Shown: positions 4,870 to 57,915, counted from the stretch's first letter. The stretch is DNA of 64,000 bases from Clostridia bacterium (GCA_017463665.1 JAFTOT010000087.1:5871-69870); one strand, 5' to 3'. Notes: generated by a model from the letters alone, not told the origin. Program-made: numbers and translations.

Positions 4870-6048
4870 ATGAAAACATTCACTTTATGCTTGTCTTTTG
4901 TAAAACGGTACGCATTGTCGATCTGCATTACATGTTTGACACTGGCTTCCGGCATTTTTCTGCTGGTCGCCATGGTGGGGATGTATCAATTTCAAAAATA
5001 TACCTTGGAGGTGTACAAAGCCTCCGACCTGCAGGATGCTGTATTTGTTATGCCGTCTTTCTTTGAAGATGGAACAGAACTTAGAGAGAGATCACAGATG
5101 ATCCAAGAGACGGCTTCGCAGATGGACGGCGTCTCGCACATTTTGAATTATCAAAGTTCGATCGCGGGCTATGGGGATCATGTGACCAACGCCATGTATT
5201 GGTCCAAAGAGATGCGGGATAATTTCAAGTTGCAGCTCGTTGAGGGGGAATGGTTCAGTGAAGATCCCACCGAGACCGAGGCTGTCATCGGCGGTGCCGT
5301 ATGGGACGGCGTTTCGGTAGGGGACACCGTTACGCTGAGCAACGGCGTCACGGCAAAGGTGGTGGGCATCATGGGGGAGCACGTGGTATATCCCGCATTT
5401 TCATCCGGCACGAACGATGCTTTTCCCGCATCCAAATTGTTCAATACGATCGACACGATGGTTTTTCTCACCGAGGAAACGATCGACTTTGCATCGCTGA
5501 ACATTAAAAACATGAGCGGAAATAAAACAATGTTCTTTGTGTGCTTTGCAGACGATGCGACGCAGGCAGAGAAGGATGCAGTACTTTTGTATTTGGAGAG
5601 CGAGGGCGTCGTTCGCACATATGAGGACATCGTGCAGGATTCGGAGGATGCACTGGCAAGCATCGTCACGGAGCAGTTTCCGCTGCCGCTGTTTTTGCTC
5701 TGCATTACAACGATCGGTATCCTTTGCATCTGTGCTGTCATCGTCAAGCGCAGCATGCCCGATATGGCAAAGTATTATTTGCTTGGGTGTACAAAAGCGA
5801 GATATACCGGTATCCTTGCCGGGACTATGGCATGTGTCTTTTCGATCCCGGCACTGCTGGGTATCGCGGCAGTGGTGCTTTCCCCGGATGTTGTGCACCA
5901 AATCTTTCATGCGAAATATATTATCGACGCGCACTGCGTCCTGCCGATCATACTGTATGTATGCCTGTTGGTCGGCATTTTGATCCTGATGCCGATGCTG
6001 TTTTACCGTAAGTACTCGCCCGTGGATCTGTACAGGAGGAATTTGTGA
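4870..6048 (+). CDS. FtsX/MacB-type ABC transporter permease 2
   Basis: GGAGG RBS at 4861. Same 1+3 TM topology, with a MacB-like ectodomain (VIGGAVWDGVSVGDTVTLSNGVTAKVVGIMGE). Confidence 0.75.
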   Translation: MKTFTLCLSFVKRYALSICITCLTLASGIFLLVAMVGMYQFQKYTLEVYKASDLQDAVFVMPSFFEDGTELRERSQMIQETASQMDGVSHILNYQSSIAGYGDHVTNAMYWSKEMRDNFKLQLVEGEWFSEDPTETEAVIGGAVWDGVSVGDTVTLSNGVTAKVVGIMGEHVVYPAFSSGTNDAFPASKLFNTIDTMVFLTEETIDFASLNIKNMSGNKTMFFVCFADDATQAEKDAVLLYLESEGVVRTYEDIVQDSEDALASIVTEQFPLPLFLLCITTIGILCICAVIVKRSMPDMAKYYLLGCTKARYTGILAGTMACVFSIPALLGIAAVVLSPDVVHQIFHAKYIIDAHCVLPIILYVCLLVGILILMPMLFYRKYSPVDLYRRNL

Positions 6049-10091: not shown

Positions 10092-11702
10092 CTATAGCAG
10101 TGGGGCGAATATCCGCACGACAGAGCGGATCACGCGCTGCAGCAGGTTTGTTTTCAGCATATCGGATGTGATCCGGATGGACTTTTCCAGTGTGTCTTCC
10201 ATATCCGCTTTCAGCGCATGGATGGAGTCGCATTTGTACATCCACACGCCGTTTTCAAAATGATGCACCAGCGAGCGGTAGTCGAGATTGATGGTACCGA
10301 TCATGGCGATTGCATCATCGGCGAGATAGCTTTTCGCATGAATGAAGCCGGGTTCGTATTCGTATATCTGTACGCCTGCCGCCATGAGCCTCGGATAGAA
10401 GCTCCGCGTCATGCCAAACACGATTTTTTTGTCGGGTATATGCGGCACAAGGATACGAACATCCACACCGCGCAAAGCGGCGTTTTCGATGCTTTGGCAA
10501 AGGTCATTATCAATGATCAGATACGGCGAGGTCATATACACATATCGGGTAGCGGTATGCAGCATGTTTTGTATCACGCTTTTTCCCACGCGGCGGGTGT
10601 AGATCGGGTGCGGTCCGTCGCCGAAGGGGATGACATAGCCTGCAGCGGAAATCTCGGGCTGCGGCGGGTACAGATCCTTTCTCGCATCGGGCATTTTTCG
10701 GACGTTGATGCCGAAGTCCACCAGAAACAGCTTGGTCAGTTCCCAAACCGCCTCTCCCTCCAGGCGAAGTGCCGTATCCTTCCAATGACCGTATTTTTCG
10801 ATCGCGTTGATGTATTCGTCGGCGATGTTTACGCCGCCCGTATAGCCGATCTTACCGTCTATCACCAGGATCTTTCGGTGGCTGCGGTTGTTGAATTCGC
10901 TATCGGCATTTCCGCGGAGCCGAGAGAAGGGCGTAGCTTCAATGCCGTAGGCGCGGAGCGTTTTATGATAGTCGCCGGGCAGCGTCATCATGCAGCCGAT
11001 GTCATCGTACAGCACCTTGACTTCCACACCGCAGGCGGCTTTCTTTTTGAGAATATCCAAAATCGAGTTCCAAAACTTGCCCTCCTCGATGATGAAATAT
11101 TCCATATAAATAAATTTTTCCGCATTCGCAAGGTCGGTGAGCATCGCAGCATACATATCCTCGCCGAGGGGGAAGTACGTTTGCTTTGTGTCGGTAAACA
11201 AGTGCGTTTCCGCAATATCGCAGAGCATTTTTGCCTGCGCCGCGGCAACGGGACTTTCTGCTTGCAGTTTGCAAAGTAAATTCTCATCATGCGGCGTGTA
11301 TGCGAGGGTTTTGAGATCGTTCAGCCGTTTTATGAATTTTCTTTGCAGTTTTCTGGAATAGAACAAAAAATACAGCATAAACCCTGCGACCGGGATGATC
11401 AGTACAAACAGAAGCCACGGCACTTTATAATCGGGGTTATCGTCGGAGGCGATAATACGAATAATGCAGAAGATTTCGGTTGCGTATGCCGCGATATAAA
11501 AATAGGGCACGTAATAGCATAAAGCGATCACGATTCCGATCACGGCAAGAACCTCGAAAAGCGTAATCAGCACAGCAAGGATATACCGCACCGGAATGTA
11601 ATTCACTTCGCGTTCCACTGTCTTTTTGTTCACAGCATACCGTATGGTTTTTTTCATTTTAATTTTCGTAAACAAGCTGCGGCGAGATGCCGAATTCGAC
11701 AT
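10092..11702 (-). CDS. cls: Cardiolipin synthase (two PLD/HKD domains)
   Basis: N-terminal TM helices. HKD motifs HRKILVIDGKIGYTGGVNIADEY and HAKSYLADDAIAMIGTINLDYRS. Confidence 0.92.
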   Translation of the reverse strand: MSNSASRRSLFTKIKMKKTIRYAVNKKTVEREVNYIPVRYILAVLITLFEVLAVIGIVIALCYYVPYFYIAAYATEIFCIIRIIASDDNPDYKVPWLLFVLIIPVAGFMLYFLFYSRKLQRKFIKRLNDLKTLAYTPHDENLLCKLQAESPVAAAQAKMLCDIAETHLFTDTKQTYFPLGEDMYAAMLTDLANAEKFIYMEYFIIEEGKFWNSILDILKKKAACGVEVKVLYDDIGCMMTLPGDYHKTLRAYGIEATPFSRLRGNADSEFNNRSHRKILVIDGKIGYTGGVNIADEYINAIEKYGHWKDTALRLEGEAVWELTKLFLVDFGINVRKMPDARKDLYPPQPEISAAGYVIPFGDGPHPIYTRRVGKSVIQNMLHTATRYVYMTSPYLIIDNDLCQSIENAALRGVDVRILVPHIPDKKIVFGMTRSFYPRLMAAGVQIYEYEPGFIHAKSYLADDAIAMIGTINLDYRSLVHHFENGVWMYKCDSIHALKADMEDTLEKSIRITSDMLKTNLLQRVIRSVVRIFAPLL

Positions 11703-22494: not shown

Positions 22495-22715
22495 CAGAAC
22501 TAAATAAGCACACAGAGTGTCGGGCGGGCCGCGTAAGGCTCGCTCGGTGAAAAGGGAACGTGGTGAGAATCCACGACGATACCAGTCGCTGTATGCATCC
22601 GAATGTTTTTGTACTCGTCGGCGAAAGCCGGTCATTGGGAAACTGAGAAGGCAGGGTATAAAAACGCAAGGCTATGCGCCTTATAGGATGTGAGTCAAAA
22701 GACCTGCTCTGATGT
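22495..22715 (+). ncRNA. Cobalamin (B12) riboswitch aptamer
   Basis: Conserved core readable: GGTGAAAAGGGAACGTGGTGAGAATCCACGAC...ACCAGTCGCTGTA, plus a B12-box-like GAGTCAAAAGACCTGCTC at 22690-22707. Confidence 0.8.
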
Positions 22716-22839
22716 TGCTCCGTCCGTGTATTTACATAGGAGCAATAGTTTTGTTTGGCACTATCCATTTCTCAAAAACGGAATGTGGATAGGCTTTGTT
22801 GCGTTGCCATGCAAAATGTGACAGTCACAGGAAAACTCT

Positions 22840-49321: not shown

Positions 49322-49577
49322 GATATGATGTTCCCGCGCAAAGCGCGTAAACAGCGATATAAATCCCTGACGGGATTTTCGATATGCCCTGCGGGCGCGA
49401 TATGTCCTGCGGACTCGATATACCTGCGGGCGCGATATGTCCTGCGGACTCGATATACCTGCGGGCGCGAGGGATTTATATCATATCGCAAGCACGCAGT
49501 GCTTATATCGAAACCGAGCATCGCGAGGTTATATCGTGCGGCTCTGCCGCATATCGCCTTAGCGGCTCTGCCGCTAA
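49322..49577. repeat. Mini-hairpin array 1: CGATAT/ATATCG linkers separating tri-loop GC hairpins, including a perfect 35-bp tandem duplication (49398-49432 / 49433-49467)
   Basis: CGATAT at 49355, 49380, 49398, 49416, 49433 and 49451 (plus GGATAT at 49321). Inverted ATATCG at 49483, 49505, 49531 and 49551. Hairpins include GCCC-TGC-GGGC, GTCC-TGC-GGAC, AAGCAC-GCA-GTGCTT and AGCGGC-TCT-GCCGCT. Confidence 0.85.
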
Positions 49578-49591
49578 ACATTCCTTTTCGT

Positions 49592-49620
49592 TTGCATTCA
49601 GGATTGCTTTGTGCTATACT
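49592..49620 (+). promoter_or_regulatory. Sigma-70 promoter of the radical SAM gene
   Basis: TTGCAT, 17-nt spacer, TATACT. Confidence 0.55.
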
Positions 49621-52677: not shown

Positions 52678-52749
52678 GTGATTGACAACGCGCTGCGGAT
52701 GTTGTATACTGTATTTACAGATGTAAATTCATTACGACGGAGGTACGGG

Positions 52750-53685
52750 ATGAAAAAGCGGTTTCTTTTGCTCTGTATGCTTGCGTTCTTGCTTTGCGCC
52801 TGCGCGGTGGAGCCTGCGGAGACAACGACAGCGCCCGTGACAACGACAGTGCCCGTGACAACGGCAGTGCCCGTGACAACGACAGCGCCCGTGACAACGA
52901 CAGCGCCCGTGACAACGGCAGTGCCCGTGACAACGGCGGTGCCCATGACAACGACAGCGCCCGAAACAACGACAGCGCCCGAAACAACGACAGCGCCCGA
53001 AACAATGGCGGTGCCCGAAACGATGGCGGTGCCTGTGACAACGATCACCGATCCCTCTGCGATAGATATTGCTGTGCCGATCGATACATATGAGAGCGAT
53101 ACGTATACCGTGACCGAATACCGCAACAGCGATGACAGTGTGATCTACTGGACGGTCGTTACAAAAAGCATATTGCATTCGCAGGAGTTTCGCTATGATC
53201 GGGACGAAAACGCAGGACCGATTCCATCGGTCACTACGCTTGTTGCCGAAGCGGACATCAATTTTGACGGGCGAACGGACCTTTGCCTGTTTAAAGGGTA
53301 TTTCGGTGCGCAGGGAGCAAGACTGTATATCGGCTATCTGCAAAATGCCGACGGCACGTACACGCTCTGTGAAGGATTTGAAAATATCGCAGATCCGGCG
53401 CTCGATGCAGAGAATAAAGTGATCCTTTCCACCTCGAGAGAAAACGCAGCTCAACACCGATACGGCAAATATGCTTTTGCAGGCAATGCGGTAAAATGTA
53501 CGGATGCACTGATCTATACCGTCGGAGATGAAACCGTGGAGATGGACGGCGTTGTGTATTCGATCGCGTCCGACTCGCCCGACCGTGACCGTTTCCTCGG
53601 CGAGGGCGGTGAGTGGGAGCTCGAGGGCGAAAAGTGGTACAGCGGTCTCGGCGTCGTCCGCCAAAACAGTGTGTCGGATAAGTGA
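52750..53685 (+). CDS. Putative lipoprotein with Thr/Pro/Val hexapeptide repeat linker
   Basis: ATG 52750 follows GGAGG. Signal/lipobox-like MKKRFLLLCMLAFLLCAC. Twelve TT(T/A)(A/V)P(V/E) repeats, then a globular C-domain. Confidence 0.7.
   Translation: MKKRFLLLCMLAFLLCACAVEPAETTTAPVTTTVPVTTAVPVTTTAPVTTTAPVTTAVPVTTAVPMTTTAPETTTAPETTTAPETMAVPETMAVPVTTITDPSAIDIAVPIDTYESDTYTVTEYRNSDDSVIYWTVVTKSILHSQEFRYDRDENAGPIPSVTTLVAEADINFDGRTDLCLFKGYFGAQGARLYIGYLQNADGTYTLCEGFENIADPALDAENKVILSTSRENAAQHRYGKYAFAGNAVKCTDALIYTVGDETVEMDGVVYSIASDSPDRDRFLGEGGEWELEGEKWYSGLGVVRQNSVSDK
52822..53037 (+). repeat. 12 tandem 18-bp coding repeats (ACAACGACAGCGCCCGTG family)
   Basis: In-frame units encode TTTAPV/TTAVPV/TTTAPE/TMAVPE variants. 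The repeats also create long spurious ORFs in other frames and on the other strand. Confidence 0.9.
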
Positions 53686-53850: not shown

Positions 53851-55836
53851 ATGCGTTACAAGATATTTGAATATGATCCATATTTAAAGCCGTATACTGC
53901 GGATATCGAGCTCAGAATGGACAACTATAACCGAAAAAAGAAAGAACTTCTCGGCGATGGTTTATCCCTTTTGGATTTTGCCAACGGGCACGAGTATTTC
54001 GGCTTTCATAAGAGCGGCGACGGCTGGGTCTACCGTGAGTGGGCACCCGGCGCGGACGCGCTGTATATCATGGGAGACATGAACGGCTGGGATCCGACGA
54101 GTCTTCCGCTGCAAAACATCGGTAAGGGTGTTTTTGAGATCTATCTTACGGGCGAGAACAGTCTGTACGGCGGATGCAAGGTCAAGACGGTGGTGGAAAA
54201 GGACGGCAAACGGATGGAAAGGATCCCGCTGTATGCCCGCCGCGTGGTGCAGGACCCCGTCAGCTATACATGGGCGGCAGAGATCCTGGACGAAAAGCCG
54301 TTTGCGTGGAGCAAAAAGAAGTTTACCCCGCCGAAAAACCTCTTTATCTATGAGTGCCATATCGGTATGGCGCAGGACAAAGAGGGGCTTGGCACCTATG
54401 CGGAGTTCACGGAAAAAGTTTTGCCGCGTGTGAAAGCGCTGGGATATAACGCGATCCAGATCATGGCGATCATGGAACATCCGTATTACGGCTCGTTCGG
54501 CTATCAGGTCTCGTCCTTCTTTGCGGCGTCCTCCCGCTTCGGCATGCCCGAGGATCTCAAGCGTCTGATCGATACGGCGCACAGTATGGGAATCGCGGTG
54601 CTGCTGGATGTGATCCATTCCCACGCGGTAAAGAATACCGCCGAGGGCATCAATCAGTTTGACGGCACGGACTATCAGTTCTTCCATACGGGATCGCGCG
54701 GCGAGCATCCCGCGTGGGATACGAAGCTCTTTAACTATAATAAAAATGAAGTCATTCATTTCCTGCTTTCCAACCTCAAGTTCTGGATGACCGAATATCA
54801 CTTTGACGGCTTCCGCTTTGACGGTATTACGTCCATGATCTATCACGATCACGGACTCGGGGAAGCCTTCACGGATTACAAAAAATACTTTTCGCTCAAT
54901 ACCGATACCGAGGCGATCACCTATTTGCAGCTTGCCAATGAGCTGATCCGTCAGGTGAACCCCAAGGCGATCACCATCGCTGAGGATATGTCCGCGATGC
55001 CGGGTATGTGCCTGCCGATCGAAGAGGGCGGCGTAGGCTTTGACTACCGCCTCTCCATGGGCGTGCCCGACATGTGGATCAAGCTGCTCAAAACCACCAA
55101 GGACGAAGACTGGAACATGTATTATATATGGCATGAGCTGACCAGCCGCCGTCCTATGGAAAAGTATATCGGCTATGCGGAGTCGCACGATCAGGCATTG
55201 GTCGGCGACAAAACCATCATGTTCTGGCTGTGTGACAGTGCCATGTACACCGATATGTCCAAGTCCTCCACAAGCGCTGTAGTCGATCGCGGCATCGCTC
55301 TGCATAAGATGATCCGTCTGGTGACCATGACGCTCGCGGGAGAGGGATATCTGAACTTCATGGGCAACGAGTTCGGACACCCGGAGTGGATCGATTTTCC
55401 GCGCGAGGGCAACGGCTGGAGCTACCATTACTGCCGCAGACAGTGGCATCTTGCCGACGATCCGCTGCTGAAATATGAATGGCTGCTCGAATTTGACAAA
55501 GCGCTCGTGGCAATGGTGCAGGACAAAAAGCTCTTTGCCAAGGCACCCGTCGGTTTGTATATTGATGACGAATCCAAGGTGCTGGTATATGAGCGCGGCG
55601 GCATGATCTTCGCATTGAATTTTGATCCGACAAGATCCTATCCGTCCTATTTCGTGCCGACGAAGAAGAAGGGAAGCTACGTGCCCGTTTTGTCTACCGA
55701 CGAAGAACGTTTCGGCGGTTGGGATCGGATCGACCTGTCTGCGACCTACACAGCCGCCAAGACAGAGAAGTCGGGCATCGGATTCCCCGTATATCTCCCC
55801 GCACGCACAGGCGTTTGCTTTGTAAAGACGAAATAA
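53851..55836 (+). CDS. glgB: 1,4-alpha-glucan branching enzyme (GH13)
   Basis: GH13 catalytic regions FDGFRFDGITSM, IAEDMSAMPG and ESHDQALVGDK. 661 aa. Confidence 0.9.
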   Translation: MRYKIFEYDPYLKPYTADIELRMDNYNRKKKELLGDGLSLLDFANGHEYFGFHKSGDGWVYREWAPGADALYIMGDMNGWDPTSLPLQNIGKGVFEIYLTGENSLYGGCKVKTVVEKDGKRMERIPLYARRVVQDPVSYTWAAEILDEKPFAWSKKKFTPPKNLFIYECHIGMAQDKEGLGTYAEFTEKVLPRVKALGYNAIQIMAIMEHPYYGSFGYQVSSFFAASSRFGMPEDLKRLIDTAHSMGIAVLLDVIHSHAVKNTAEGINQFDGTDYQFFHTGSRGEHPAWDTKLFNYNKNEVIHFLLSNLKFWMTEYHFDGFRFDGITSMIYHDHGLGEAFTDYKKYFSLNTDTEAITYLQLANELIRQVNPKAITIAEDMSAMPGMCLPIEEGGVGFDYRLSMGVPDMWIKLLKTTKDEDWNMYYIWHELTSRRPMEKYIGYAESHDQALVGDKTIMFWLCDSAMYTDMSKSSTSAVVDRGIALHKMIRLVTMTLAGEGYLNFMGNEFGHPEWIDFPREGNGWSYHYCRRQWHLADDPLLKYEWLLEFDKALVAMVQDKKLFAKAPVGLYIDDESKVLVYERGGMIFALNFDPTRSYPSYFVPTKKKGSYVPVLSTDEERFGGWDRIDLSATYTAAKTEKSGIGFPVYLPARTGVCFVKTK

Positions 55837-55851
55837 TAGTAGGAACTAAAA

Positions 55852-55900
55852 AGCATTGCAAGATCCGAAAAATTCGGATCTTGCAATGCTTTTGTCGTTT
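55852..55900 (+). terminator. Rho-independent terminator after glgB
   Basis: Perfect 18-bp stem AGCATTGCAAGATCCGAA/TTCGGATCTTGCAATGCT, AAA loop, then TTTGTCGTTTT. Confidence 0.85.
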
Positions 55901-55908
55901 TGTGAAGT

Positions 55909-56101
55909 AAATGGATTGTTTATGATACGAATGATTTGCGCGTACCGCGCATGAATTGACGGCTGTGCCGTCATGATTTGAATTGCAATCTCCTATGCGC
56001 CGCAGCGCAAATCATGCCGTAGGCAAATCATGAGCACACAGTGCTCAAATCATGCAATCCCTCGGATTGCAATTCATTGTTTACGCGCGTCGCGCGTAAA
56101 C
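55909..56101. repeat. Mini-hairpin array 2: CATGATTTG/CAAATCATG linkers separating tri-loop hairpins
   Basis: Left linkers AATGGATTG (55910), AATGATTTG (55930), CATGAATTG (55950), CATGATTTG (55972). Right linkers CAAATCATG x3 (56008, 56024, 56046) and CAATTCATTG (56069). Hairpins include CGCG-TAC-CGCG, ACGGC-TGT-GCCGT, TGCC-GTA-GGCA, AGCAC-ACA-GTGCT, CAATCC-CTC-GGATTG and GTTTACGCGC-GTC-GCGCGTAAAC. Confidence 0.85.
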
Positions 56102-56103
56102 TT

Positions 56104-57915
56104 TCATTTCTTCTCAGTGTAATACTGCGCTTGGGCGGTCCACAGCTCGTGGTATTTGCCGTTCACATCCGCAACGAGCTCGTCGTGCGTTCCGACTTGC
56201 ACGATGCTGCCATGATCGAACACGGCGATCTTGTCGCAGAAGCGGCAGGAGGACAGGCGGTGGCTGATGTAGATGGCGGTCTTGTCTCCGACGATGTCAT
56301 TGAACTTGGCATAGATCTCTGCCTCGGCGATGGGATCGAGCGCGGCGGTCGGCTCGTCCAGGATGATGAACGGTGCGTCCTTGTAGAGTGCGCGCGCCAG
56401 CGCAACCTTTTGCGCTTCGCCGCCCGAGAGGTTCACGCCGTCGGCATCAAAGTTTTTGTATAGCGGCGTGTCGAGCTTCTGCGGCATCTCCCGATACCGC
56501 TCGCCAAAGCCCACTTCTGCAAGGCAGCGTTCGGCTTTTTCGGCGTCCCACCGCTCGGCGGAAGCGACGTTGTTGCCGAGGGGCAGACCGAGCAGGCTGT
56601 AGTCCTGGAAGACGACCGAGAAAATGTCTAAATACTGACGGTAATCATACTTGCGGATGTTGAAATCATTCATCAGGATCTCGCCCTCGGTCGGATCGTA
56701 CAGGCGGCAAAGCAGTTTGATAAATGTGGTCTTGCCGCTGCCGTTCATGCCCACGACCGCCAGGCGCTCGCCCACCTTCAGGCTGAGGTTGATATTTTTG
56801 AGCGCGTAGGTGTCCGCACCCGCGTATTTGAAGCTGACATTTTTAAACTCGATGTCAAACTTCTTATCGCTGCGCTTTTCCACCGCAAGGCTGCCCTGGT
56901 ACATATCGTTTTGAATGTCGAAATAGTCGAGATACTGCTTTAAAAAAGGCTCATTATGCTTTGCTCGTCCCAATTGATTGAAAAGCGAGCAAATATTTTT
57001 AATCAACCTTCCAAGGTAACCCACATATTTGATCACACTGCCCACAGGGAAGGCGCCAAGCGTACAATATAGACAAACCAGCAAATATGTGCACATCTCG
57101 GAGAACTTTGTTAAAACAAATACCGGTGTTTCATAGAGAAAACTTTTGCGGTTGACCGCGGTAAATATACGCAAATGATCGCGGCTGTTTTTTTCCTCAA
57201 GCGGTGTAATAATTTCCTGTTGCCGGTAAATGCGACAGTCCATGCCGGACACTTTATACCCCTGTCCGATTCTGTTTTCGCCAAGCATATGTTCACTGAG
57301 GCTGTTCCAGTTGGCGGCATTCTTTTTGCTACTCTGTAACTGCATAACGACGGTGAGCACCACGAGAATAAAAAGCAAGACCAGTAAAACTGCGCCCATC
57401 AGGGGAAAGCGTACGCTTGCCATATTGCCGAGCATTTCGGTAAACAGAATACAGGAAAGCGAGATCTGCACGGCACAGTCCATGAGTTTTTCCACGGTAA
57501 AACGGAGCTGCTTTACTCCATGACTGTTGACCTGCGAATTCTGGCTGATCTTCCGCCGAAGCTGACGAATCTCGGGATTTTCCAGCTTGTCATAGTCAAG
57601 GGAAAGCGTTTTGCGGTTGAATGCCGCCGCCTCATTGTTGGCGAGGATCTGACGCTGTAGCTCCGTGATATATCCAAGAAGTGCCCCCACGATCCGCACA
57701 AATAGATTGCCAAACAAGGTAATGGCAACGAGCAGGAAGATCGCCTGTTTGTCCTTACCCGCATACAGCGCCGTGACGATCTCGGCGGACATCCAGAGAT
57801 TGAAGTAGGGAGAGATGCTTTGGAAGAGGATATGCAGGAATTTAAGGGGGAAATACTTTGGATTATACGCGCTGTACGTCCGAAAAGCGCGCATCGTGAT
57901 GTTTTCCTTACGCAT
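56104..57915 (-). CDS. ABC exporter, fused permease-ATPase (half transporter B)
   Basis: Six-TM-type N-domain, GMNGSGKTT, LSGGEAQKVALARAL, FIILDEPTAALD. Confidence 0.9.
   Translation of the reverse strand: MRKENITMRAFRTYSAYNPKYFPLKFLHILFQSISPYFNLWMSAEIVTALYAGKDKQAIFLLVAITLFGNLFVRIVGALLGYITELQRQILANNEAAAFNRKTLSLDYDKLENPEIRQLRRKISQNSQVNSHGVKQLRFTVEKLMDCAVQISLSCILFTEMLGNMASVRFPLMGAVLLVLLFILVVLTVVMQLQSSKKNAANWNSLSEHMLGENRIGQGYKVSGMDCRIYRQQEIITPLEEKNSRDHLRIFTAVNRKSFLYETPVFVLTKFSEMCTYLLVCLYCTLGAFPVGSVIKYVGYLGRLIKNICSLFNQLGRAKHNEPFLKQYLDYFDIQNDMYQGSLAVEKRSDKKFDIEFKNVSFKYAGADTYALKNINLSLKVGERLAVVGMNGSGKTTFIKLLCRLYDPTEGEILMNDFNIRKYDYRQYLDIFSVVFQDYSLLGLPLGNNVASAERWDAEKAERCLAEVGFGERYREMPQKLDTPLYKNFDADGVNLSGGEAQKVALARALYKDAPFIILDEPTAALDPIAEAEIYAKFNDIVGDKTAIYISHRLSSCRFCDKIAVFDHGSIVQVGTHDELVADVNGKYHELWTAQAQYYTEKK

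Follow-up and report, generated by a model that had tools for sequence, protein, structure and literature searches.

Genes for four-helix-bundle proteins of the S23p type have been known for about 30 years from intervening sequences (IVSs) in ribosomal RNA (rRNA) genes; to our knowledge, neither a function of these genes nor an account of their spread has been presented. In the 23S rRNA IVSs of Leptospira, Coxiella, and Brucella, an open reading frame (ORF) of this family (PF05635/TIGR02436) lies between inverted sequences that pair into a stem, and the elements are regarded as selfish. Avd, an S23p homologue, is essential for diversity-generating retroelements (DGRs). This protein forms positively charged pentamers and binds an RNA stem-loop whose coding sequence lies beside its own gene (10.1101/2023.10.23.563531). 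In the Coxiella IVS, short tandem repeats of strain-variable number are located just upstream of the S23p ORF (PMC4990558). Here, we describe a repeat array, termed array 2 (positions 55910-56101), in a 64,000-nucleotide (nt) stretch of DNA from a Clostridia bacterium (GCA_017463665.1 JAFTOT010000087.1:5871-69870), which is referred to as the window throughout; the nearest named relatives of its uncultured source lineage (ruminant-gut metagenomes) are Oscillospiraceae. Array 2 very probably belongs to a repeat family whose complete members accompany four-helix genes of the S23p type. Judged by its sequence, it is a putative orphan of such a member, namely a gene-less copy of the leader module situated in the 3' untranslated region (UTR) of an ATP-binding cassette (ABC) transporter operon.

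The complete members of the family, which we call cassettes, resemble the IVSs in the family of the encoded ORF, in its position between inverted sequences that pair into a stem and, in our reading, in a selfish lifestyle; the strain-variable repeats before the Coxiella ORF are a further likeness. Unlike IVSs, they are found in intergenic regions of protein-coding operons and in phage genomes rather than in rRNA. Their stem arms consist of linkers of 6-9 nt that are broken by variable mini-hairpins, and many copies, including the one in the window, carry no ORF. Rfam detected no rRNA in the window, and array 2 does not lie in helix 25/45 of a 23S rRNA gene.

Array 2 is composed of four CATGATTTG-type and four CAAATCATG-type 9-mers with GC-rich mini-hairpins between them (Table 1). 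The initial annotation, which was made from the sequence alone, had listed these motifs at the positions at which we found them, except for CAATTCATT, which it placed one base early at 56069. It had also proposed that every interval between linkers forms a tri-loop hairpin. This is too general, as six of the seven intervals are hairpins and the interval 55919-55929 (TTTATGATACG) is not. When one mismatch is allowed, CAAATCATG matches at 17 sites in the whole window, compared to 21.6 expected from shuffled sequences; a stretch of 125 nt holds 7 of the 17, against an expectation of 0.04 (Poisson P ~5e-14). K-mer detectors, which were otherwise noisy, pointed to only two arrays of the linker-hairpin design in the 64 kb, array 2 and a second one, array 1. 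Searched at gathering score over the whole window, Rfam returned nothing for either array, its sole match being a cobalamin riboswitch (RF00174, 63 bits, 22500-22725), and an E-value scan of 55800-56200 gave no score near any gathering threshold.

Table 1. Features of array 2 and its surroundings in the window.
Feature	Position	Strand	Description
Linkers, left half	55910; 55930; 55950; 55972		AATGGATTG; AATGATTTG; CATGAATTG; CATGATTTG
Linkers, right half	56008, 56024, 56046; 56070-56078		CAAATCATG (first three); CAATTCATT
Hairpins, left half	55939-49; 55959-71		CGCG-TAC-CGCG; ACGGC-TGT-GCCGT
Hairpin, centre	55998-56007		CGC-CGCA-GCG
Hairpins, right half	56017-23; 56033-45; 56055-69		CC-GTA-GG; AGCAC-ACA-GTGCT; CAATCC-CTC-GGATTG
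Leading hairpin	56079-56101	-	10-11 bp stem; minus strand GTTTACGCGCG-A-CGCGCGTAAAC; adjoins first linker
Proximal half	56008-56078	-	AATGAATTG, then CATGATTTG x3; hairpins CAATCC-GAG-GGATTG, AGCAC-TGT-GTGCT, CC-TAC-GG between
Centre	55981-56007	-	hairpin CGC-TGCG-GCG, CAT, AGGAGATTGCAATT
Distal half	55910-55980	-	CAAATCATG, CAATTCATG, CAAATCATT, CAATCCATT; hairpins ACGGC-ACA-GCCGT, CGCG-GTA-CGCG and one non-hairpin spacer
ABC transporter ATP-binding/permease gene	56104-57915	-	last of two-gene ABC operon; array 2 follows in the same orientation
glgB-like branching enzyme gene	53851-55836	+	convergent with ABC operon
glgB terminator	55849-55893		perfect 21-bp hairpin, A and T runs on flanks
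Array 1	49335-49580	+	linker CGATAT x6, then ATATCG x4

Folding of both strands, a check that the initial annotation had proposed, showed that array 2 folds far better than shuffled sequences (z -6.8 and -5.7). However, the ladder of four helices that had been put forward as the predicted fold is not the computed optimum. The strict ladder reaches -58.5 kcal/mol and falls short of the minimum free energy fold, at -85.1 kcal/mol, by about 27 kcal/mol; the side hairpins alone account for -38.4 kcal/mol. The minimum free energy fold contains a register-shifted 11-bp pairing of 55931-41 with 56005-15. According to these models, the linkers would be able to pair, with the ladder as one among several alternatives.

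A metagenome scan for three spaced copies of CATGATTTG returned at least 120 stretches; copy counts are therefore lower bounds. Among the matches listed, most are ordinary tandem repeats, and eleven contigs (L073, L083, L099, L106, L112, L144, L165, L171, L177, L184, and L079) combine the linker of array 2 with unrelated GC-rich mini-hairpins and an inverted half. Altogether, 15 or more unrelated metagenome contigs carry the linkers of array 2 with different hairpins. Of 87 units, 93% form a stem of 3 bp or longer (34% in shuffles) and 67% one of 4 bp or longer (8% in shuffles). In 73 distinct units, the loop is closed by a C-G pair in 59 of 69 hairpins, triloops make up 45 of the 69, and exact GCGAAGC and CCGAAGG recur. 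When read in the CAAATCATG orientation, the loops of both halves are of the form G..A in 35 cases and T..C in none, a rule that places the favoured loops on opposite strands in the two halves. The family unit is an oriented pair of a linker (here C-AAATCAT-G, with the variant CAATTCATG) and a GC-rich, C-G-closed mini-hairpin. Typically, the loop is GNA or GNNA on the strand reading CAAATCATG, a half has 4-5 units, and the second half is an array on the opposite strand.

Array 2 has at least three linkers in each orientation within ~250 nt (four plus four, 55910-56078). It also shows the layout of the family, which runs from the leading hairpin and AATGAATTG through the L units to a hairpin, CAT, and ..GCAATT, followed by R units up to CAAT(T/C)CATT. 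Its loops in the CAAATCATG orientation (GTA, ACA, GTA, ACA, and CTC) follow the G..A rule more loosely than most copies do, and a TIGR02436/PF05635 gene is present neither directly downstream nor between the halves. Taken together, we have little doubt that array 2 is a member of the family. BLAST in distant mode against plasmid and phage collections gave no match to array 2, a literature search with the linker string returned only primers and unrelated matches, and in the literature on PF05635, TIGR02436, S23p, and Avd-like proteins we found no description of linker-hairpin arrays. Apparently, the repeat family has not been described so far.

The link to four-helix proteins follows from the gene loci themselves. 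All four distinct four-helix gene loci with this linker that were examined (L106/L196-205, L206-215, L177, and L229-238) have arrays, which are located just upstream of the ribosome-binding site of the gene and/or flank the gene as inverted halves. In L106, a 119-amino-acid (aa) ORF is enclosed by two halves, and in L177 a related ORF adjoins the arrays; both are assigned to TIGR02436/PF05635 and match PDB 2RLD, a structure with five chains. The genes P0121 and P0234 are preceded by ATGAATTG-hairpin-CAATT and four CAAATCATG-type units, of which the last linker stops 3 nt short of the ribosome-binding site. Past the gene, four CATGATTTG/CATGAATTG units lead to a terminal hairpin-CAT, and folding predicts that the two ends of the cassette pair with each other over the ORF. 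P0229, in turn, has a complete two-half module directly upstream of its ribosome-binding site. Every cassette is co-oriented with the flanking genes. The P0234 cassette (L206-215) lies between ecfT and truA, and relatives whose EcfT is 80-92% identical have other sequence in this spacer and no cassette. Compact copies, for example L184, are homologues of the cassette without the gene and have its peculiar 'GAG..CGA GAAATCATG' unit.

Two further candidate rules for the family were rejected. Linker variants covary in nested order in L230 and not in L206 or L177, so that nested covariation is inconsistent between copies, and a strand preference deduced from G-U versus A-C mismatches in the stems gave no signal (5 versus 6).

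Unit for unit, the minus strand of the window can be aligned to the leaders of L230 and L177. The leading hairpin of array 2 begins 2 nt past the ABC stop codon (56104-56106), and in L230 an analogous hairpin is found directly past the stop of the upstream gene. In the centre, the terminal GCAATT is a partial linker that leads into the first CAAATCATG on the minus strand. L230 has the same arrangement (hairpin, CAT, ..GCAATT, and CAAATCATG), and a variant in L177 ends in ..GCGATT and CAAATCACG. In these complete copies, the ribosome-binding site and ATG of the four-helix gene are found at the distal end of the module. In contrast, phmmer identified no four-helix ORF in the 64-kb window. A leader layout that is not followed by a four-helix gene is what marks array 2 as an orphan module.

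Several further small features were observed. The ecfT-truA spacers of L216 and L219-L228, as well as L319 5080-5125, contain another small structured repeat (..CCCTCAGTCAGCTTCGCTGACAGCTCCC..GGGAG..). The length of the spacer ranges from 93 to 153 nt among contigs that encode an identical EcfT protein, and where the cassette is missing, the spacer ends with TTGATTTGATTT, which resembles a linker and immediately precedes the ribosome-binding site of truA. In L229-L238 (1066-1269), the four-helix gene is followed by a 67-aa zinc-ribbon ORF with two CxxC pairs and by no second half-array. Long imperfect inverted repeats of short tandem motifs (GGAATT/CGGAAT and CACGAAA/CAACGAAA) without side hairpins are present in L031 (7855-7975) and L038 (4220-4400); they have a similar polarity switch and a different design.

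Array 1 follows the same plan, as the initial annotation had recognized, with another linker. Both arrays have the 10-mer GCGCGTAAAC in the leading hairpin, and the three exact copies of it in the window occur only at the arrays (one in array 1 and one in each arm of the array 2 hairpin). They also have the first side hairpin AATCC..GGATT in common, while their linkers differ. These shared sequences argue that arrays 1 and 2 are true paralogues. Array 1 (leading hairpin CGCGC-AAA-GCGCG, first side hairpin AAATCCC-TGAC-GGGATTT, centre CGAGGGATTTATATC) adjoins, on the upstream side, the good sigma-70-like promoter (TTGCAT-17-TATACT, 49592-49620) of a radical SAM/SPASM gene. It contains a recent 35-nt tandem duplication, two assemblies break within it, and near-identical strains differ in array 1 only in the hairpins (loop TCT->AAA, loop G->A, and a stem-restoring A->GC). 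In the sister species, represented by L059, array 1 is absent, with homology stopping exactly at its right edge and its neighbours differing as well. At its place, L059 has unrelated sequence (10196-10640) with a small ribbon-helix-helix-like gene (weak RepB-RCR_reg/DUF6290 matches) and two tiny ORFs.

The ATATCG linker type recurs, together with the first hairpin and centre of array 1, on the phage contig L319, which also encodes a portal protein, DnaB, and a methyltransferase. The module (5142-5307) is located directly past the stop of a replication-initiation gene (phrog_3584, E 1e-47; PF23343). It could be origin-related or simply occupy another intergenic landing site. In L363, a reduced form of this type is fused to a 5'-truncated four-helix gene. 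A third linker, GTGAAAT/ATTTCAC, was found directly upstream of four-helix genes on the phage contigs L359 and L361, with the first hairpin AAATCC..GGATTT, a centre consisting of GGATTTAT and a partial linker, and the loop polarity of the other types. All linker types have the first hairpin AAATCC..GGATTT and a centre with GGATTTAT in common; the layout of the superfamily is thus conserved and the linker lineage-specific. A viral scan for three copies of CGATAT gave mostly chance matches and one true relative, L319; none of the nine matches of a viral scan for the CAAATCATG pattern belongs to the family.

These data leave practically no room for chance clustering, or for a decaying ordinary tandem repeat without structure of its own, and we regard this explanation as refuted. 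The tandem duplication in array 1 is of the kind it predicts, and most other listed matches to the three-linker pattern are indeed such repeats. However, neither the density of linkers in array 2 nor its hairpin content, which is far above that of shuffles, is accounted for, and one layout recurs, with three different linkers, on contigs that are unrelated.

One possibility is a non-autonomous transposon similar to miniature inverted-repeat transposable elements (MITEs), whose halves would serve as terminal inverted repeats for a transposase or recombinase encoded elsewhere, with the four-helix gene as passive cargo. As in the MITEs Correia, RUP, and ERIC, the copies are short, non-coding, and intergenic and form long imperfect hairpins; they occupy different sites, and their presence or absence between relatives may reflect insertion polymorphism. 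ATG...CAT marks the termini of the inverted halves, some compact copies have no gene (L184, L073, L083, L144, and L112), assemblies break at the arrays, and many four-helix contigs are short. On the other side, neither a target-site duplication nor a parent insertion sequence was found, no transposase lies near any copy, and the arms are internally repetitive with gain and loss of units. The window-type copy has its halves in permuted order, with the 'ends' joined outward-in, unlike an integrated MITE. Furthermore, the only cargo seen is the four-helix gene, together with one zinc-ribbon ORF, always in the same orientation to the arrays, and the layout is kept while the linkers differ between lineages. 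We therefore consider this explanation improbable.

Other mobile or repetitive systems offer partial parallels. Like repetitive extragenic palindromic (REP) sequences and bacterial interspersed mosaic elements (BIMEs), the arrays are intergenic and palindromic, often form inverted pairs, and place a short constant motif beside a hairpin. As in the system of REP doublets and REP-associated tyrosine transposases (REPIN-RAYT), inverted copies lie on both sides of the gene for a dedicated protein, and gene-less copies are scattered intergenically. However, a REP hairpin keeps its sequence throughout a genome, whereas in the arrays it is the short linker that is constant and the hairpins that differ, and the RAYT protein is an HUH tyrosine transposase, whereas the array family encodes a four-helix bundle of 118 aa. 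Repeated palindromes typical of REP/BIME were not found, since every hairpin of array 2 differs and only two arrays exist in the 64 kb. No RAYT was found among the neighbouring ORFs that were checked or have a Pfam annotation; several neighbours were never scanned. Similar to integron cassettes, promoterless small genes appear in sense orientation with imperfect palindromes as bounds, and attC palindromes likewise are conserved in structure apart from short core motifs and function strand-specifically in folded single-stranded DNA (ssDNA). In contrast to integrons, there are no integrase and no cassette arrays, and the cargo is essentially one gene family; the GTTRRRY core of attC was not seen in the sequence of array 2, nor an integrase among the flanking genes.

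The arrays also recall clustered regularly interspaced short palindromic repeats (CRISPR) in the alternation of constant and variable segments with a period of ~20 nt and in the gain and loss of units between strains. They are, however, a mirror image of CRISPR, in that the constant part is 6-9 nt long and unstructured and the variable part is palindromic, and they comprise only 4-9 units with a polarity switch and no cas genes. In array 2, the constant part is 9 nt and the variable parts are palindromes, compared to repeats of at least ~23 nt and non-palindromic spacers in CRISPR. The parallel to DGRs lies in the homologous pentameric four-helix protein, Avd, and the stem-loop RNA next to its gene (10.1101/2023.10.23.563531). 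Unlike DGRs, the family lacks a reverse transcriptase as well as any template or variable repeat, and its arrays are repetitive and present on both strands.

The surroundings of array 2 allow its role at the locus to be evaluated. The initial annotation had assigned glgB a terminator of its own, which was confirmed (Table 1), and had interpreted the array as the 3' UTR or terminator region of the ABC operon. On the minus strand, array 2 is followed after 16 nt by the glgB hairpin, which was scored as a terminator on the plus strand only and whose use on the minus strand was judged by eye from a TTTTT tail. Probably, this 21-bp hairpin ends ABC transcripts as well, in which case array 2 would fall inside the ABC 3' UTR. 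The place of array 2, with the ABC stop codon on one side and the glgB terminator on the other, agrees with a 3' UTR. By contrast, a canonical terminator is not present in the array, because the leading hairpin (56101-56079) has no U-tract on the ABC strand, where the next sequence is AAUGAAUUG; the terminator scan flagged the plus strand only. ABC homologues with 91% and 76% identity have a different downstream gene, an ordinary hairpin terminator, and no array. A contig search with the ABC protein gave best identities of 66-69% without shared synteny and was uninformative for array 2. Past ABC homologues in L008-L010, L019, and L034 (e.g., L009 11870-12150), a different repeat is present in 2-4 tandem copies of ~100 nt, each carrying two small hairpins, CGCGGCGACTGCCGCG and CTAACGGTTACGCAGGAACCGTTAG.

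Contigs with identical ABC and GlgB proteins are 100% identical in the intergenic region except for one 24-nt indel, which corresponds to one extra unit, CATGATTTG and GAGTGC-TAC-GCATTC, in L052/L053 after window position 55971. The initial annotation had named the lack of both family members elsewhere and conservation in relatives as grounds for refutation, which do not apply. Apart from the family described above, the sister species L059 (ABC protein 94% identical) keeps array 2 between ABC and glgB and has, at the indel position, a diverged extra unit, GAGCGC-CAT-GCGCTC, with one compensatory pair change. Acquisition of units in a CRISPR-like manner was rejected, as the extra unit of L052/L053 is homologous to that of L059 and to the conserved 'GAG..' unit of the family. 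Most simply, the window strain lost this unit by recombination between linkers.

The ABC gene is ~10% diverged from L059 up to the stop codon, compared to ~1.5% for array 2, glgB, and the genes beyond. A recombination breakpoint thus appears to coincide with the module edge (window 56104, ABC stop, and 56101), and array 2 belongs to the glgB block, with which it must be compared. An earlier conclusion of strong purifying selection, based on ABC divergence, was withdrawn, since the array shares the low divergence of this block. Of seven substitutions between L059 and array 2 of the window, five fall in loops, which make up 22 of ~200 nt. Relative to four-fold degenerate sites of glgB (4.9%), stems and linkers are less changed (2 of ~178 positions) and loops more (5 of 22). 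In the glgB terminator loop, the three central bases are inverted (AAA/TTT) between the window (55869-55873) and L059 (2741-2745) with the 21-bp stem unchanged, which looks like a hairpin-loop flip. Elsewhere in the window, an ORF at 52678-53685, whose protein has no Pfam match, contains an 18-nt (six-codon) tandem repeat at 52821-53044; its copy number varies by strain through a 72-nt indel, with products of 287, 311, and 335 aa.

It is well established that REP elements of E. coli stabilize upstream mRNA by means of stable hairpins. By analogy, array 2 might be an RNA element adopted by the host, which as ABC 3' UTR would block 3'-to-5' exonucleases or terminate or insulate convergent transcription. 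Its location between the ABC stop codon and an apparently shared two-way terminator, the folding of both strands, and the low rate of change in stems and linkers are consistent with such a role. However, the module is found upstream of genes as well, between co-directional genes, and, in the case of array 1, between divergent genes, so that it is not bound to 3' ends. The missing U-tract and the array-free ABC homologues with ordinary terminators count against this role, too. Furthermore, the GNA bias falls on opposite strands in the two halves, which leaves one 'good' half per transcript and speaks against a function that resides in a single transcript. Of the two functions proposed in the initial annotation, a DNA-level element therefore fits better than a 3' stabilizer, and we think a host-adopted RNA element unlikely.

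The loops point to ssDNA as a further possibility. DNA mini-hairpins of the GCGAAGC and CCGAAGG type are far more stable than their RNA versions and are known from ssDNA origins, ssiA, and phage N4 promoters (PMC13037366, PMC3201870), and ssiA and ssiB of RSF1010 form an inverted pair on opposite strands (PMC13037366). Accordingly, priming, loading, or an origin-type function could take place at the arrays, as it does at ssiA/ssiB or at complementary-strand origins in phages of the G4 type, with one functional copy per strand. The family shares with these sites (G4/St-1, RSF1010, and N4) the C-G-closed GNA/GNNA loops, including both exact hairpins. The inverted halves would give each strand one correctly oriented copy, the ATATCG module of L319 directly follows a replication initiator, and loops changed ~5x faster than four-fold degenerate sites, as exposed bases might. 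However, ssDNA-origin hairpins are single and belong to defined origins, whereas the family has 3-9 hairpins per array with constant linkers. Its chromosomal copies reside in ordinary operons without replication or transfer genes nearby, and the single case next to a replication gene lies in a convergent intergenic gap like that of the window. The linker shows no evident triplet for recognition by a primase, and the fixed position before the ribosome-binding site of the four-helix gene would remain unexplained. We accordingly give this explanation, too, only a small share of our confidence.

With somewhat better than even confidence, we read array 2 as the orphan of a modular cassette that is selfish and in which the arrays act in cis as platforms, with the pentameric four-helix protein as their probable partner. 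The host range of the element, as far as the contigs indicate, would comprise gut Oscillospiraceae-type Clostridia and some of their phages. We are moderately confident that the element is a selfish cassette; that the arrays are a platform for the four-helix protein we put forward tentatively, as a possibility somewhat short of even. In one complete form, the two halves are joined as a leader, with 2-10 nt between its last linker and the ribosome-binding site of the four-helix gene, and in the other they flank the gene and can pair over it in the manner of a 23S rRNA IVS stem. Gene and arrays would move together as a promoterless cassette; its insertion into host operons is in sense orientation, and gene-less derivatives persist. 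When the duplex is opened or transcribed, the stable mini-hairpins may snap out and display the repeated linker tracts, to which the pentameric protein could bind, thereby regulating its own gene and marking the element.

The conservation of the linkers suggests that they are read by something, and the encoded four-helix protein would be the best candidate, because its homologue Avd binds an RNA stem-loop encoded beside the Avd gene. A pentamer would fit well with the usual 4-5 linkers per half. Both the polarity rule and the mini-hairpins of DNA type seem to favour an action of each half on its own strand, at the DNA level or by symmetric recognition, over action through one transcript; the constant sense orientation and the proximity to the ribosome-binding site imply that transcription and translation of the gene also matter. 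The module in the window is probably a relic without a dedicated host function, likely transcribed within the ABC 3' UTR and adding only stable structure. Beyond this, each four-helix lineage might read its own linker of 6-9 nt (CAAATCATG, ATATCG, or ATTTCAC), so that protein and arrays constitute a self-regulating and self-propagating cassette, an extension that we regard as rather doubtful.

Several observations weigh against the favoured reading. There is no four-helix gene within the 64-kb window, so that a partner protein encoded in this genome is only a candidate, and binding of the protein to the linkers is a matter of pure inference. A target-site duplication was not recognized in L184, L073, L083, L112, L144, or L206, nor a transposase near the copies; mobility thus rests only on presence or absence and on differing insertion sites. 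The array of L177 has 9 units rather than 4-5, and the linker variants AAAT and AATT are mixed within arrays and do not track protein clades. Linker type and protein clade would, moreover, covary by simple linkage anyway. Lastly, a host role of array 2 as a 3' UTR structure retains a low probability.

For the window alone, the outcome is modest, in that two intergenic oddities turn out to be orphan copies of one element family. More broadly, the family provides a handle on the function and spread of S23p proteins, as it offers a simple, repetitive, and lineage-specific cis element with built-in strand polarity, turnover of units, and carriage by phages, and direct binding and regulation experiments on the four-helix proteins become possible. 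It also supplies a signature for annotating intergenic repeats that break metagenome assemblies of gut Clostridia. If each lineage indeed reads a cognate linker, this would be the first function of PF05635 outside DGRs and would also explain the ORF-bearing IVSs of rRNA genes.

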